DNA from: a virus
Virus record (IMG/VR): IMGVR_UViG_3300009147_000001
Coordinates: 1 to 64,000 of that record
Length of the DNA stretch: 64,000 nt
Direction: 5' to 3' (one strand)
Shown here: positions 28,315-36,141 of the stretch, one piece after another
How the letters are laid out: each line of letters opens with the position of its first letter
Position numbering within the stretch: position 1 is the stretch's first letter
The notes under the pieces: generated by a model
Seen by the model: the letters and a program-made list of their open reading frames with translations, nothing else
Told to the model about the DNA's origin: nothing
Database searches by the model: none
Program-made: the position numbers and the translations under genes

Positions 28315-28603
28315 GCACGCTCGACGGTGTCCGCGTTGTGAATCCCCGGGTGTGGAAGGTGCTTCCCGCCCGGGGCCACATCGTAGCGTAATGCATACAT
28401 TCCACTGTCACAATGAGCGATGTCGTTGGTACACCACATCTTGGGTGGTACAAGTCAATGCAGATGGTAGTATTCCACCACCGGATGCATATCGACCTAA
28501 ACAATTTCCTGTACTACCAGATCAAACTGATGCAGTGAACGCACAAATGCAAAGACTCCTCCAAGACACCGCCAAGAAGGGCAGTGAGATTCGTGGGAGG
28601 TGA
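28298..28603 (+). CDS. Zn-ribbon hypothetical protein
   Basis: RCPRC...CHNERC. Confidence 0.6.
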   Translation: MDTTFEHARRCPRCESPGVEGASRPGPHRSVMHTFHCHNERCRWYTTSWVVQVNADGSIPPPDAYRPKQFPVLPDQTDAVNAQMQRLLQDTAKKGSEIRGR

Positions 28604-28608
28604 TGCAA

Positions 28609-30033
28609 ATGTCGTCCCTTAGTCTCTTTCCCTTTCAACGTGAGACTGTCGATAAGTTCCACAATGTACATAATGTTCTTATCGGGGACGACATGTAGCT
28701 GGGTTTAGGTAAAACTGCTCAGGCCATTGCACTTGACCAAACCAGGCGAAGTAATACAGGAGTCTATCATTGTCAAACCTTAGTGGTAACTCCACTGACT
28801 ATGGTAGATACGTGGGCGCGCGAGTATAATCAGTGGGCGCCGGACCTTCGGGTTATGGTAATTAACAACAAAAACCGACAACCATTCCTGGATGCCATTA
28901 CCAATCGCACCCATGATGTGTATATATGTCACTGGCCTGTTCTTCGACTCATGCCAGAACTATCTGAGCAAATGTGGTTCCATTTCATTGCTGACGAATG
29001 TCATGCACTGCAAAATAGAAAAGCAAAACAGACGCTTGCCGCGAAAAAGATTAAGGCTTACTACAAAACTGGACTTTCTGGCACACCAGCTTTTGACAAA
29101 CCTGACGATCTCTGGTCGATCCTCAATTGGCTGTATCCTAAGCATTGGTCCTCATACTGGCGATATTTCGACAGGCATGTATTATGGGTGGACTACAACG
29201 GATACAAACAAATCATTGGTATTGCGAATAAAGAAGAACTTCATAGTCAAATGTCTGGGTTCTATATTCGGCGGCGTAAGGAGCACGTGTTAAAAGAGCT
29301 ACCAGATAAGTACTACACCGACATTGAAGTGGATCTGAGCCCACAGCAGGCACGGGCCTATGAATCTATGCGTCGTGACATGATTGCTTGGGTGGGCGAA
29401 CACGAACATGAAGCAGTGGCCACCTCAGAAGTCATTGCTCAACTCGTCCGATTGCAGCAATTTGCATGCGCCTATGGCGAAATGGTGGAAACGAAGATAC
29501 GTAGTCGAGACACGGGCGAAGAGACGACTGTTCAAAAACTTAAACTCACCGAGCCGTCAACCAAGATCGATGCTGTTATTGAGATTATTCGCAACAATCC
29601 ACCCAACAAGCAATTTGTTATTTTCTCGCAGTTCTCCCAAGTTATCAAAATTCTAGAAAAACGACTGGCCGACGCAGGCATCAGTTACGGTATATACATT
29701 GGTGAAACTCCCGCAGACGAGCGTAGCCGCATCATTGATGACTTTCAAAATGGACTAATACAAATCTTTGCTAGTACAATCTCTGCCGGCGGCGTTGGCA
29801 TTACCCTGACCGCATCAGACACTGCAATATTCATTGATCGATCATGGTCGCCAAGTATTAATCGTCAAGCCGAAGATCGACTTCATAGAATAACCCAAAA
29901 GAACGCTGTTCATGTTATTGACATTCTGGCCAAGCAGACAATTGACGCTAAGCGTATTCAACAGATTTTGCAAAAATGGTCCTGGATTCGTCAGCTCATC
30001 GGTGATGACCGAGATAATTGGGTGGTTGATTAA
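28609..30033 (+). CDS. SNF2-family helicase with in-frame TAG at 28696-28698
   Basis: RBS GGAGG; LFPFQ (Q motif), GDDM*LGLGKT (motif I), DECH, SGTP, GVGITLT, QAEDRLHR. Confidence 0.9.
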
Positions 30034-31532: not shown

Positions 31533-33686
31533 ATGATGGACGTCCAGGACTATATTGACAAGAAATTGACGCATCAGATACATACGTCTGAACGACGGGC
31601 ATTTCGTAGCTGTCGACGTCGATGGGACTGGACGTATCGAGATATGTGGTATCCAAAAGTCACCCCTGAACCATTGGAGTTCGGGGTGGCTTTCCACAAA
31701 GCCATGGAATACATGTACGCGCCAGAGAACTGGCATGACAAGTTCACGGCCAAAAATCTCGCCATTGTGGCTTTTCGTCGCGAGACTGAGCGTCAGCTCA
31801 AGGACTTTATTAGACTAAACGGTGAGCCCGAGGCTGACGTGCTACAAAATCGCCGAGATCGCATCGAACTCGGCATCAACATGATCCGCTATTATGCCGA
31901 AGACGTGGCCTCCATAGAAGATCGGAACTTTACTCCATTAATGGTAGAAGTAGGATTTGAAGTTCCCATAGAAGACCATAACACTGGTGAGCAGCTCTGG
32001 TGTACGTGTAACCAATGTTATGCCAGGTTCGAATCGCAAAAAGTCGTTTCTAACATGTGGCGTGGACTACCAGTAACATATGGTGGTCGCATTGACATGA
32101 TAGCTAAAGACCAGATTGGGAGAGTATGGTGCTATGACTGGAAGACAACTTCCCGAATTCTTGATGAAGATGCGGAATCATCATTCTTACAGCTCGATGA
32201 TCAGATCACTTGTGTTCCAATGAACACTGAGGCATTGACTCCAACTGGATGGAAGAGAAGATCTGAACTAGAAGTAGGAGAACTCGTACTTGCATATGAT
32301 CAAAAATCAAAATCGAATAAATGGACGCCCATTCTTGCGTTCCACGATTTTGATAATGCAGAGCTATTTCAACTAAGTGACAAGACTAAATCATTCTGTG
32401 CAATTACTACTGCCAACCATAGGTGGATGGGGGAGAGACCATCGTCACATGGTAAATATGCAAAAATTATCGACTGGGAACCCGATACACAAAAGATAGA
32501 TGAATATAACAGTAAAGCCGCCATCTATGTTAGTGCCAACAGTGAAGTAGACGGATCACTTCCAATAACACCAGATGAGGCAGCACTAATCGCATGGATT
32601 ATTACCGATGGATCTCTCACCATAAGGGGAAATTCATACCAGGCTGCTATCGCTCAGGCAAATCATAAATATGCCAATGAAATACAAGCACTAATTGATA
32701 GAATAGGAATTAAGCACTCAGTGCGAGAGTATCCTGGATCGAACTTATCAAATAGACCGTACTTCAAGTGGTACCTCTCCCAGCCATACATTTCTGATCT
32801 GTGGGATCGAGCTGGTATCATGGGTAGACATGGCAACTTGGATGAATTCGTTCTAGGATTGTCAGCTAAGTCCAGAACAAGTTTTGTTGAAGCTGGAATG
32901 AAGGCAGAAGGATCACTTAGAAAAAACGGTAGTGGAACATTCTGTCAAAATGATGGTGAAGTAAAGGAAGCCTTTAGACTAGCAATGTTCCTGGAGGGTC
33001 GACGTCTAAGTATAGGAGGTCCCAAATACTTTGGGGTTCGCGTAGGTCGACCAGTCGCGGACGTGCGTACACTTAACACCACTAAAGTGGAGGGCAAACA
33101 TCGTGTATGGTGTATTTCCACCAAATATAACTCCTGGGTTATGCGTCAGGGTAAACAAATTACCATCACGGGCAACTCTTATTGCTGGGCTCTCTGGCAG
33201 CTTGGCTATGACATTGCTGGGTTTGTATATGTGGAAATTAAGAAAACGTACCCAAAGCCACCAGAACGACTCAGTCGACCATACAAAGGACGACTCTTCA
33301 GTACCAACAAACAACATCTGACTGATTACCGAAACTTTGTCGACACAGTGGCAGTTCAGGACGGACAAGGCTTCCAGACTGGACTCTACGACGAGTACAT
33401 TGATTGGCTCAAAACCGAAGGGCCACGCTTTACTCAACGCCATGAGATTGCGCGCAATCATCATGAGCTAGTAAATGCTGGTCGTAACATCGCCCTAGAG
33501 GCCATGGATATGACGCAAAACCCCCGGATCTACCCACAGCCAGGGCGGTTTTCGTGTCCAACCTGCCTGTTCCGACAGCCATGTCTAGGAATGAACATGA
33601 ATGAGGATGTCCAATATCTACTGGATACCTTGTTTGAGAAGCGAACACATCACTACTGGGAGGACAAACCAGTAAGCACTGATTAG
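31533..33686 (+). CDS. PD-(D/E)XK (Cas4/RecB-like) exonuclease with intein
   Basis: SCRRRW, GVAFHKAME, GRIDMI..DWKT, C-terminal CPTCLFRQPC. Confidence 0.9.
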   Translation: MMDVQDYIDKKLTHQIHTSERRAFRSCRRRWDWTYRDMWYPKVTPEPLEFGVAFHKAMEYMYAPENWHDKFTAKNLAIVAFRRETERQLKDFIRLNGEPEADVLQNRRDRIELGINMIRYYAEDVASIEDRNFTPLMVEVGFEVPIEDHNTGEQLWCTCNQCYARFESQKVVSNMWRGLPVTYGGRIDMIAKDQIGRVWCYDWKTTSRILDEDAESSFLQLDDQITCVPMNTEALTPTGWKRRSELEVGELVLAYDQKSKSNKWTPILAFHDFDNAELFQLSDKTKSFCAITTANHRWMGERPSSHGKYAKIIDWEPDTQKIDEYNSKAAIYVSANSEVDGSLPITPDEAALIAWIITDGSLTIRGNSYQAAIAQANHKYANEIQALIDRIGIKHSVREYPGSNLSNRPYFKWYLSQPYISDLWDRAGIMGRHGNLDEFVLGLSAKSRTSFVEAGMKAEGSLRKNGSGTFCQNDGEVKEAFRLAMFLEGRRLSIGGPKYFGVRVGRPVADVRTLNTTKVEGKHRVWCISTKYNSWVMRQGKQITITGNSYCWALWQLGYDIAGFVYVEIKKTYPKPPERLSRPYKGRLFSTNKQHLTDYRNFVDTVAVQDGQGFQTGLYDEYIDWLKTEGPRFTQRHEIARNHHELVNAGRNIALEAMDMTQNPRIYPQPGRFSCPTCLFRQPCLGMNMNEDVQYLLDTLFEKRTHHYWEDKPVSTD
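32211..33176 (+). mobile_element. Intein (322 aa) with LAGLIDADG endonuclease
   Basis: CVPMNTEALTPTGW...TANHRW...LIAWIITDG...VWCIST...ITITGN/S. Confidence 0.93.
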
Positions 33687-34344: not shown

Positions 34345-34488
34345 CACTCATAGATACATCTCGATCAATTAGAGCAGTTGCGCTGGGCAGACAGCGATGC
34401 TAGACTGAAGTTCACTTCCCTTTCACAACCAAGTTTGGTTATTATTCGAATAAAAATTCGGACAAATTGGTACAAAGAGGGTGAATCA

Positions 34489-36141
34489 TTGTCGATAACG
34501 AGCATTGCTGGTCTGCCCATTCGCAAAGTAACCGAAGTACCGCCACATTTTAATATGTTGGTGTATGGTGAGAGTGGTGCAGGAAAAACCCGATTAGCAG
34601 GCTCCTGTGACGCCATCCCAGAGATGCGCCGAGTCCTGTTCATAGACATTGAGGGTGGCACACTAACACTTCGGAATACCTTTCCCAATGTCGAGGTTGT
34701 CCGAGTCCGCAATTGGCAAGAAATGCAATCCGTATACAATGAACTCCATGCTGGACAACATGACTATACTACAGTAGTCGTAGACAGTTTAACAGAATGC
34801 CAGAAATTATGCTATTCTTCCGATACTGAGGTACTAACTCCAAGTGGTTGGAAGTTAATACCAGATCTAGCAGAAAATGTCGATCTTATTGCCCAATACG
34901 AAATGGGCACCGAGTTAATATCCTTTGCTCAACCGTCGCTGATAATGAATTATCACCATCATGGTAGTATGGTAAACATCGCATCCAAGTCGTCTGCACT
35001 ACTTGTTACTCCTAATCATAGAGTACTTACTAAGACTCCCGCTGGGTCGATTGAAGTTCGAAAGGCTGAAGACCTTCGATCAAAACTGTTACTGCCAACC
35101 GCTGGTACACTACTTTCTATTGGTGGTCCTACCCCCGAACAGGGTAGACTATTAGTTGCTTGGGCTGCTGATGGACACCGTAATTTTAATGGTATGAAGT
35201 TCCACTTGAAGAAACAAGAAAAAATCGACCGTGTTAAGAAACTTATCATCGACTGTGGATTAACATACGAGGAGCCTGACTGGAAAGACGATGGAACTTA
35301 CATAATTGTGAGAAATGCTCAGTCAGTGACAAAATTCATGCCTGACCGCATGTGGCACATTGAATCCATGATGTGGTCATTGCAGACACGTGACGCTATC
35401 ATGTCGGAAATGCCTCTCTGGGACAGTACACCACAACCATCAGGATCTGGCTCATTCAGTTATAGAACTAAATATAAATCAAATGCAGACGCAATTTCTG
35501 CTCTCGCTGCTCTTACTGGATGGAGTGTCAATATTGCAATTGACACTACAAGAACTACTATTTACCGACTTAACTTAATTCGCACTTCATGGAGAACACA
35601 ATCAGTTATTGAAAACGTAGATTACAATGACAGCGTATGGTGTGTCTCTGTACCTTCAGGATTCATTGTCACTCGCCGTCAAGGTAAAATTACAATCTGT
35701 GGTAACTCTATGGACCGTATAATGCGTAAACTCGTAGAAGAATACGAGGAACGTGATGCAGACGTTCCAGGCATTCGGGAATGGAACATCAATATAGAGC
35801 AAACACGCAAATTCGTTCGAGCCTTTCGTGACTTGCCCGTAAATACGATCTTTACTGCTTTAGTTAAAATGGACAAAAATAATCGGACTGGAGCCATAAA
35901 GCGTAAACCATCGTTAAGCGGCAAAGTAGCCGACGAAGTTGCCGGTTTCCTTGACATTGTTACATATCTATATACCAAGGAGGTTGAAGGAGAATACAGA
36001 CGTATACTGTTATCCGGAGCCACTGAAGACACGGTAGCCAAAGATCGCACCGGATTGCTACCAATGTTGATTGAGTCACCTACCATGGTTGAGATCTGGA
36101 ATGCAGTCAAGGAGATAAAGACGGATGGCCAGTCCGCTTAA
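34489..36141 (+). CDS. AAA_24/Sak4-like ATPase (recombinase) with intein
   Basis: LVYGESGAGKT, IDIEGG, TVVVDSLTE, AKDRTG; RBS GAGGG before TTG 34489. Confidence 0.9.
   Translation: MSITSIAGLPIRKVTEVPPHFNMLVYGESGAGKTRLAGSCDAIPEMRRVLFIDIEGGTLTLRNTFPNVEVVRVRNWQEMQSVYNELHAGQHDYTTVVVDSLTECQKLCYSSDTEVLTPSGWKLIPDLAENVDLIAQYEMGTELISFAQPSLIMNYHHHGSMVNIASKSSALLVTPNHRVLTKTPAGSIEVRKAEDLRSKLLLPTAGTLLSIGGPTPEQGRLLVAWAADGHRNFNGMKFHLKKQEKIDRVKKLIIDCGLTYEEPDWKDDGTYIIVRNAQSVTKFMPDRMWHIESMMWSLQTRDAIMSEMPLWDSTPQPSGSGSFSYRTKYKSNADAISALAALTGWSVNIAIDTTRTTIYRLNLIRTSWRTQSVIENVDYNDSVWCVSVPSGFIVTRRQGKITICGNSMDRIMRKLVEEYEERDADVPGIREWNINIEQTRKFVRAFRDLPVNTIFTALVKMDKNNRTGAIKRKPSLSGKVADEVAGFLDIVTYLYTKEVEGEYRRILLSGATEDTVAKDRTGLLPMLIESPTMVEIWNAVKEIKTDGQSA
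34810..35706 (+). mobile_element. Intein (299 aa) with LAGLIDADG-like endonuclease
   Basis: CYSSDTEVLTPSGW...VTPNHRV...LVAWAADG...VWCVSVPSG...ITICGN/S. Confidence 0.93.

Follow-up and report, generated by a model that had tools for sequence, protein, structure and literature searches.

A candidate short translational bypass at the Walker A motif of a viral SNF2 helicase gene, linked to a long-range stem at the start codon

Natural translational bypassing is known from few systems, namely T4 gene 60 and its homologs, the byps of yeast mitochondria, and a candidate in the terminase gene of the Streptomyces phage Hau3. The Hau3 terminase gene carries 7–10-nt inserts led by UUA in conserved junctions, with a proposed 5′ stem-loop, and its junction peptide was detected by mass spectrometry in E. 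coli (PMC10732093). T4 gene 60 contains a programmed bypass of 50 nt, which is part of a MobA homing endonuclease cassette (bioRxiv 10.1101/2022.08.31.505936; bioRxiv 10.1101/2024.12.09.627546; PMC5009743), and forward movement is proposed to be driven by base pairing in the exiting mRNA (bioRxiv 10.1101/2024.12.09.627546). The byps of Magnusiomyces capitatus mitochondria are described as 27–55 nt long, scattered over many genes, and translated by mitochondrial ribosomes with relaxed decoding (PMC5009743), and the E. coli stop-hops of Weiss et al. (1987) as synthetic or low-level (PMC5009743, PMC10732093). According to the main review, no natural in-frame stop-hop was known (PMC5009743), and a search of the literature gave no published account of such gaps in helicase genes. 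Here we analyze an SNF2 helicase gene from a virus, found in a stretch of 64,000 nt (positions 1 to 64,000 of the IMG/VR record IMGVR_UViG_3300009147_000001, hereafter the window), in which the Walker A motif is interrupted by the 6-nt insert TAGCTG. The Hau3 terminase candidate would be the closest known case, followed by T4 gene 60.

The helicase gene occupies a single frame containing one in-frame stop codon, a TAG, and none besides (coordinates in Table 1). As read in a preliminary description of this DNA, positions 28687–28716 are GAC GAC ATG TAG CTG GGT TTA GGT AAA ACT. The DNA thus encodes DDM-stop-L-GLGKT, and the contiguous SNF2 motif I, D(D/E)MGLGKT, is absent; DDMGLGKT is restored only when 28696–28701 are skipped. 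The nearest relative for which DNA is available (L002, IMG/VR, 56% identity) reads GGT GAC GAC ATG GGC TTA GGT AAG ACA without an insert, so the window has exactly 6 extra bases. The same junction is found in about 140 uninterrupted relatives, in agreement with the earlier proposal that removal of 6 nt restores the motif. That description had also considered the ribosome binding site, the Q motif and the rest of the gene to be intact, and this is borne out as well. A Shine-Dalgarno (SD) sequence precedes the gene, and the 29 codons before the insert include the Q motif and are homologous to the N-termini of uninterrupted relatives. The ORF after the insert contains both SNF2 domains (SNF2-rel_dom, PF00176, 1.2e-37; Helicase_C, PF00271, 2.8e-16) and keeps 84 of the 84 invariant columns of a 31-sequence alignment.

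A protein search for relatives returned 1750 homologs, of which the best 120 were examined; 80 loci fetched by homology served as an unbiased set, and further loci came from pattern scans of viral and metagenome contigs. Most of the best 120 homologs read ..(G/A)D(D/E/Q)MGLGKT, and the spacing between M and GLGK was zero in 93 of 93 full-length uninterrupted proteins and in 43 of 43 distinct uninterrupted D[DEQ]M loci. An insert is present at precisely this position in at least nine diverged lineages, directly after GACGACATG and before GGN YTN GGN AAR AC, at the same phosphodiester throughout. The insert is TAGCTG in three lineages and TTACCTG in at least four, with AGACCTG and TTACCTCG as the other forms. 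Four proteins (P0015, P0019, P0037, P0095) begin ..TTCYLGLGKT, which is the +1-frame reading of GACGACATGT and therefore points to a 7-nt insert T-TAY-CTN at the same site. Three other proteins, P0078, P0093 and P0097, are N-terminally short calls. Directly 3′ of the ATG, the window, L031 and L147 have TAG, and the other forms have TTA or AGA. Each of the three 6- and 7-nt insert types with available DNA ends in CTG, and the 8-nt form ends in TCG. Between them, the lengths of 6, 7 and 8 nt account for every reading frame.

The preliminary description had proposed a hop from AUG to the near-cognate CUG, and had offered retention of a stop-containing insert by related phages as a check. It had further suggested that the hop may limit helicase levels, and had remarked on a TTA two codons later. 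Identical TAGCTG inserts are present in two other lineages, one (L031/L131) with 47% protein identity to the window gene and one (L147) in another clade with about 60%, and the proposed hop gains support from inserts that fall in all frames and mostly end in CTG. The synonymous sites around the identical TAGCTG differ among the lineages (GGT TTA GGT AAA ACT, GGC CTC GGT AAA ACG, GGT CTT GGC AAA ACG). The retention of the same insert letters despite these scrambled flanks indicates that the "non-coding" bases are themselves constrained. The downstream reading frames appear to be maintained: every family-invariant residue is retained in the interrupted alleles of the 31-sequence alignment, and dN/dS is ~0.05 between the interrupted L017 and its relative L013. 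Within the unbiased 80 loci, no frameshift or stop was found elsewhere in the helicase, apart from inteins in L023 and L025, an insert in L030 and a TAG in L078; three of these four lie in or beside motif I.

Since the record is a metagenome-assembled genome, the insert could in principle be a sequencing or assembly artifact. The occurrence of identical TAGCTG in independent contigs from other samples (L031/L131, L147) argues against assembly error. Several unrelated samples and assemblers have yielded contigs with the same or related inserts, in every case together with the co-varying stem described below, and we regard the chance of an artifact as negligible.

ARAGORN identified 20 tRNA genes in the window, rather than the 21 counted earlier, and 29 in the 110-kb genome. 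None of the 29 has a CUA anticodon, so that the earlier statement that an amber suppressor is lacking stands. TAG ends 17 of the 71 long + strand ORFs in the window, which makes it a working stop codon here, and the helicase is the only gene in the genome broken by an in-frame stop. Genome-wide reassignment or suppression of TAG was ruled out on these grounds. A narrower form of recoding, in which nothing is skipped, would combine UAG readthrough for the 6-nt inserts with +1 or −1 frameshifting for the 7- and 8-nt inserts, placing 2–3 extra residues before GLGKT. The readthrough product xLGLGKT would still include GxGKT, and both TTA and AGA belong to the classic "hungry" codons, which are prone to shifting. 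Against this, there is neither a suppressor tRNA nor a slippery motif, TAG is used as a stop elsewhere, three separate mechanisms would be required at one site, and the P-loop would be altered by residues that are found at this position in 0 of ~140 uninterrupted homologs. Inserts in all three frames cannot be accommodated by readthrough or by a single frameshift, and a hop is sufficient for all of them. Recoding without skipping therefore appears very unlikely.

The strongest feature of the locus, which the preliminary description missed, is a stem in which the region around the start codon pairs with the take-off site. In each of the six interrupted lineages with 5′ end DNA available, the gene begins with ATGTCGTC(N), encoding MSS, often as an extension ahead of the usual start (e.g., MSS-MELYEFQ, MSS-MGLFPFQ). 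Its exact reverse complement, (N)GACGACAT, lies 87–90 nt downstream and reaches as far as the second base of the take-off ATG. Across the six lineages, the helix has 9–11 bp, with perfect complementarity over 8–11 nt and duplex ΔG values of −13 to −19 kcal/mol. The helix in the window has 11 bp, including one G·U, and a duplex ΔG of −18.4 kcal/mol. Stem pairs were counted by position with a script; MAFFT misaligns a 3-nt length difference at the gene start. Pair 9 is C:G in the window, L031 and L147, U·G in L098, and A:U in L005 and L006; both of its bases are synonymous third positions that change together, as expected of compensatory change. The stem is present in the minimum free energy fold of 6/6 interrupted alleles and in the RNAalifold consensus, and the fold of the window allele has a z-score of −2.4.

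The stem was found in 6/6 interrupted lineages, compared with 1 of 65 distinct uninterrupted alleles (L014; Fisher p = 4.9e-8), in which background complementarity is 4–6 nt. GACGACATG is likewise used by all six interrupted lineages with DNA, because the 3′ arm of the stem requires it, versus 21 of the 43 uninterrupted D[DEQ]M alleles. The gap was thus never seen without the stem, and the stem does occur without the gap. L014 (1417–1503), an uninterrupted allele that starts MSS, has a ATGTCGTCAC/GTGACGACAT stem, and an MSS start occurs in 4 of the 93 uninterrupted proteins (P0011, P0072, P0103, P0107). Such alleles may either have lost the gap by reversion or represent the state that preceded it. 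Base pairing between the insert and the SD sequence or the downstream GGTAA was also considered, and was found in single alleles only, without conservation. Outside viruses, the stem-plus-motif pattern in bacterial genomes was matched only by cellular Paracoccaceae SNF2 genes; these are uninterrupted, and GATGTCGTC there is an internal D-V-V, a chance match.

A stem that ends exactly at the gap resembles a guide structure, and the gap might be removed at the level of nucleic acid, through stem-guided RNA editing or splicing, transcriptional skipping, or heterogeneity of the phage DNA. The insert is nevertheless fixed in several independent assemblies, and a search of Rfam gave no match in the region. 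We know of no bacterial or phage system that excises 6–8 nt from mRNA, and consider removal before translation highly improbable.

We consider a short programmed translational bypass over TAGCTG to be the best reading of the helicase gene, with a probability of roughly 0.6. It would be the simplest single mechanism capable of giving DDMGLGKT from 6-, 7- and 8-nt gaps. The ribosome would decode 29 codons as far as the AUG for the Met of DDM, and there encounter UAG in the A site, or in the relatives UUA or AGA, both potentially slow to decode. Peptidyl-tRNA-Met would then unpair, the mRNA would slide by 6 nt (7 or 8 nt in relatives), and the tRNA would re-pair on CUG, with 2/3 positions matched, so that decoding restarts at GGU. 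The predicted product is a full-length SNF2 helicase with a normal DDMGLGKT P-loop and a tryptic junction peptide FHNVHNVLIGDDMGLGK. The putative signal is the helix of 9–11 bp between the first 9–11 nt of the ORF (AUGUCGUCCC) and GGGACGACAU, which covers the sequence 5′ of the take-off codon together with its first two bases. Forming on the mRNA as it exits the ribosome, this helix would put the take-off codon out of reach and bias movement forward. After landing, its end would be 4–6 nt 5′ of the new P-site codon, the usual position of an SD helix. A helix on the exit side agrees with the exiting-mRNA proposal for T4 gene 60 and with the 5′ stem-loop of Hau3.

The 5′ arm of the stem is the gene's own start site, and the hop could for this reason be linked to initiation, or depend on coupling with the gene upstream. 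The product of the upstream gene, of 107 aa, is zinc-ribbon-like, and the position of its TGA inside the helicase SD sequence suggests that the two genes are translationally coupled. Such coupling would also be expected to melt the 5′ arm. GGAGGTGAT-type SD sequences are present in the remaining interrupted alleles.

Several points weigh against bypassing. AUG and CUG are unmatched at one position in the 6- and 7-nt forms, and the 8-nt form offers UCG. The interrupted alleles each have very close uninterrupted relatives, so the inserts could be young, and the intact ORF downstream then says less about selection than it seems to at first sight. The 3′ arm of the stem would be inside the ribosome at take-off, and its aid to a hop of 6–8 nt is conjecture. 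The stem could instead, or as well, regulate initiation, given that its 5′ arm includes the ATG of the gene and that the upstream gene terminates within the SD sequence. Finally, the spontaneous stop-hops that Weiss and colleagues described in E. coli in 1987 are reportedly inefficient.

Involvement of the start site also raises the possibility that the helicase is made in pieces. Here the stem would loop out the first 87 nt and bring the SD sequence to the gap. Ribosomes would then initiate at CUG 28699 and make a helicase truncated at its N-terminus, whether or not the 29-aa peptide contributes in trans. In the folded state, the spacing from SD to CUG would be ~8–11 nt in the window, L098 and L006, and in all three 6- and 7-nt insert types with available DNA, CTG stands in frame immediately before GGN. 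The TCG of the 8-nt form is, however, no start codon, and CUG starts are rare in bacteria. The N-terminal 29 codons, with the Q motif and strand β1, are intact and conserved in all interrupted alleles, and a P-loop at the extreme N-terminus would probably not fold without β1. Internal initiation therefore seems quite unlikely.

A more specific and tentative possibility, to which we would give clearly less than even odds, is that these genes form a natural, minimal bypass family with gaps of 6–8 nt, in which the helix, as the one dedicated signal, drives the hop and sets its length like a ruler. A strict codon match would then not be needed, because the end of the helix lies 4–6 nt from the landing codon. 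An initiating ribosome on the 5′ arm would block the hop, which would proceed only when the start site is empty, with an efficiency inverse to ribosome loading. In-frame stop-hopping would then have its first natural example, together with a new form of regulatory logic. The helicase family provides natural 6-, 7- and 8-nt gap variants at one site, with a close uninterrupted control for each. Its 10-bp stem with natural compensatory changes is a simple mutable signal, which makes the drivers of short hops testable.

Comparison with the Hau3 terminase shows several points of likeness. Both are essential phage genes with a short frame-disrupting insert in a highly conserved junction, the flanks of which are contiguous in relatives; a slow UUA opens the insert, as in the TTACCTG and TTACCTCG forms of the helicase; and a 5′ stem-loop is the proposed stimulator. 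The argument from invariant junction spacing is also shared, and the helicase shows the same combination of short inserts (6–8 nt) in an invariant junction and a stem tied to the insert. The helicase differs in the gene and site affected (the Walker A motif of an SNF2 protein instead of a terminase), in a gap that in the window opens with a stop codon, and in a long-range stem with the gene's own start codon as the 5′ arm. It comprises many more lineages, with gaps in all three frames.

Like T4 gene 60, the helicase has a non-coding gap in a conserved replication gene, within a phage group rich in mobile elements. The sequences flanking the gap are contiguous in homologs, and a stop or potentially slow codon lies 3′ of the take-off codon. 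The gap of 6–8 nt, compared with 50 nt in T4, leaves no room for an internal stem-loop or SD sequence, and the T4-type take-off stem-loop and SD sequence inside the gap are absent here; the stem instead lies 5′ of the gap. The proposed codons are AUG and CUG, compared with the matched GGA/GGA pair of T4, and no MobA-type endonuclease gene is adjacent to the helicase, unlike in the mobA/gene 60 cassette (bioRxiv 10.1101/2022.08.31.505936). With the mitochondrial byps, the helicase would share short inserts tolerated by translational jumping and the acceptance of imperfect (2/3) matches between take-off and landing codons, and it differs in having one site in one gene with a dedicated stem. The E. 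coli stop-hops include a +6 hop over a stop, with nine nt used for one amino acid. This is the geometry of ATG-TAG-CTG, although those hops were engineered or adventitious, and inefficient.

Interrupted alleles are spread over the whole tree, each beside close uninterrupted relatives, and the neighboring genes are syntenic in both kinds of allele. The interrupted L006 and the uninterrupted protein P0032 are identical at 431 of 437 positions (98.6%) after the gap, and at 22 of 25 (88%) before it; their N-terminal extensions differ. This pattern suggests that an N-terminal cassette has been exchanged or lost through recombination. The idea of a homing endonuclease gene travelling with the insert was rejected, as the neighbors are the same in both allele kinds and no endonuclease gene accompanying the interrupted alleles was found; the ORFs flanking the helicase gave no match to HNH, GIY-YIG or LAGLIDADG domains.

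Inteins were observed in the P-loop of L023, between GLGK and T (..HN followed by TVTAIALD), and in motif II of L025, between DE and CH. The protein P0087 (644 aa) has a Hint_2 domain. Elsewhere in the window, a PD-(D/E)XK exonuclease (717 aa; 31533–33686) contains a LAGLIDADG_3 domain, and an AAA_24/Sak4-like protein (587 aa; 34378–36141) gives a weak, sub-threshold match to an intein-splicing domain (E 0.0024). The replication module of the window thus appears to show signs of homing elements. Given the P-loop inteins of relatives and the intein and LAGLIDADG signatures of the window's replication genes, it is plausible that the insert shields the P-loop DNA from a homing endonuclease. More generally, this hints that short inserts are tolerated in the conserved motifs of phage replication genes, where they may serve as a defense against homing nucleases.

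The same observations can be read to mean that the interrupted alleles are non-functional, being scars or selfish "immunity" patches at a hot spot in the P-loop DNA cut by an intein or homing endonuclease, and that the phage survives without the helicase or by means of co-infecting phages. The inserts may be recent, given the near-identical uninterrupted relatives; the P-loop is a known intein site in the family; homing signatures are present in the window's own replication genes; and a plain K-to-TAG change is found in the same motif of L078. Scars, however, are unlikely to repeat one sequence across lineages with scrambled flanks, nor would one expect them to go along with a compensated RNA stem at a distance of 87 nt. 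The interrupted genes are also otherwise undamaged, and lack an endonuclease gene alongside. We consider this explanation unlikely, and favor translational bypassing.

Table 1. Features of the interrupted helicase gene in the window, and insert forms in the alleles for which DNA is available.
Feature	Position in window, or alleles	Strand	Sequence or remark
SNF2 helicase gene	28609–30033	+	single frame, ATG 28609 to TAA 30031–30033
Shine-Dalgarno of helicase gene	28595–28603	+	GGGAGGTGA
TGA stop of upstream 107-aa gene	28601–28603	+	inside helicase SD, 5 nt before ATG
ORF part 1, 29 codons	28609–28695	+	MSSLSLFPFQRETVDKFHNVHNVLIGDDM; Q motif and strand β1; last codon is the proposed take-off codon
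Stem 5′ arm	28609–28619	+	ATGTCGTCCCT; start codon and next 8 nt (protein MSS...); pairs with 3′ arm
Stem 3′ arm	28684–28694	+	GGGGACGACAT; ends at second base of take-off ATG
Proposed take-off codon	28693–28695	+	ATG (Met of DDM); from junction with relatives
6-nt insert (coding gap)	28696–28701	+	TAGCTG; TAG 28696–28698, then proposed landing codon CTG 28699–28701
Resume codon and remaining Walker A	28702–28716	+	GGT onward (GLGKT)
ORF part 2, 444 codons and stop TAA	28699–30033	+	SNF2 ATPase core and Helicase_C, fully intact
Insert TAGCTG (6 nt)	window, L031/L131, L147		
Insert TTACCTG (7 nt)	L098/L117, L140		
Insert AGACCTG (7 nt)	L006		
Insert TTACCTCG (8 nt)	L005/L017/L153		

Interruptions were also observed in other SNF2 genes. 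An unrelated, larger SNF2 gene, L084 (4180–4345, IMGVR_UViG_3300044802_000094), reads GAC GAC ATG GGC TAA GGC CTC GGG AAA ACA, a perfectly matched 6-nt stop-hop site (GGC-TAA-GGC). A 12-bp hairpin, CCCAUGUUGUCG/UGACGACAUGGG, lies upstream and ends inside the take-off GGC. L084 shows the same design as the window gene, in the form of a local hairpin. About 55 nt further upstream, the Q-motif ORF of L084 ends ..CFGEI-TAA, overlapping an ATG (TAATG) with a change of frame, possibly a second interruption; the downstream ORF contains an intein. In L030 (1480–1520, IMGVR_UViG_3300020020_000042), a relative of the GTGKT form, the sequence ATG GGC ACA GGT TGA A GGA AAA ACG has a 7-nt insert one codon further on, between GTG and K, with a Gly codon, a stop, and a Gly landing codon (GGU/GGA). 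We count the L084 and L030 sites in favor of bypassing. In L078 (1026–1060), the codon for the catalytic Lys of Walker A is replaced by TAG (GLG-TAG-T) in a helicase gene that is otherwise open; a pseudogene, an error and a further case of recoding are all conceivable.

Other candidate breaks and origins were considered and rejected. Proteins beginning "MGLGKT" proved to be start-codon miscalls (e.g., P0043, which is the uninterrupted L012). A scan with a relaxed upstream pattern (GAYGANATG followed by 6 or 7 nt) gave only chance matches in non-helicase genes (L088–L096). On inspection of the sequences, the inserts were not reproduced by template-switch copying from the region 5′ of the ATG. 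These genes pose a problem for annotation, in that gene callers split or truncate them: the helicase in the window is called as a truncated protein of 416 aa starting from GTG, and "MTTCYLGLGKT" proteins are present in public databases.

The source genome is a complete virus of 110,163 bp with terminal repeats. A blastn search against cultured phages gave no match, and tblastn gave only matches of ~30% identity, to actinophage helicases. The 20 tRNA genes of the window lie at 437–24966, and the other nine at genome positions 101025–108683, near the right end. The set includes Leu(UAA) and Arg(UCU), which read TTA and AGA, the codons with which the gaps of the relatives begin. A tRNA-Met(CAT) at genome positions 102019–102093 has an initiator-like appearance, with a 1:72 mismatch and a G:C-rich anticodon stem.

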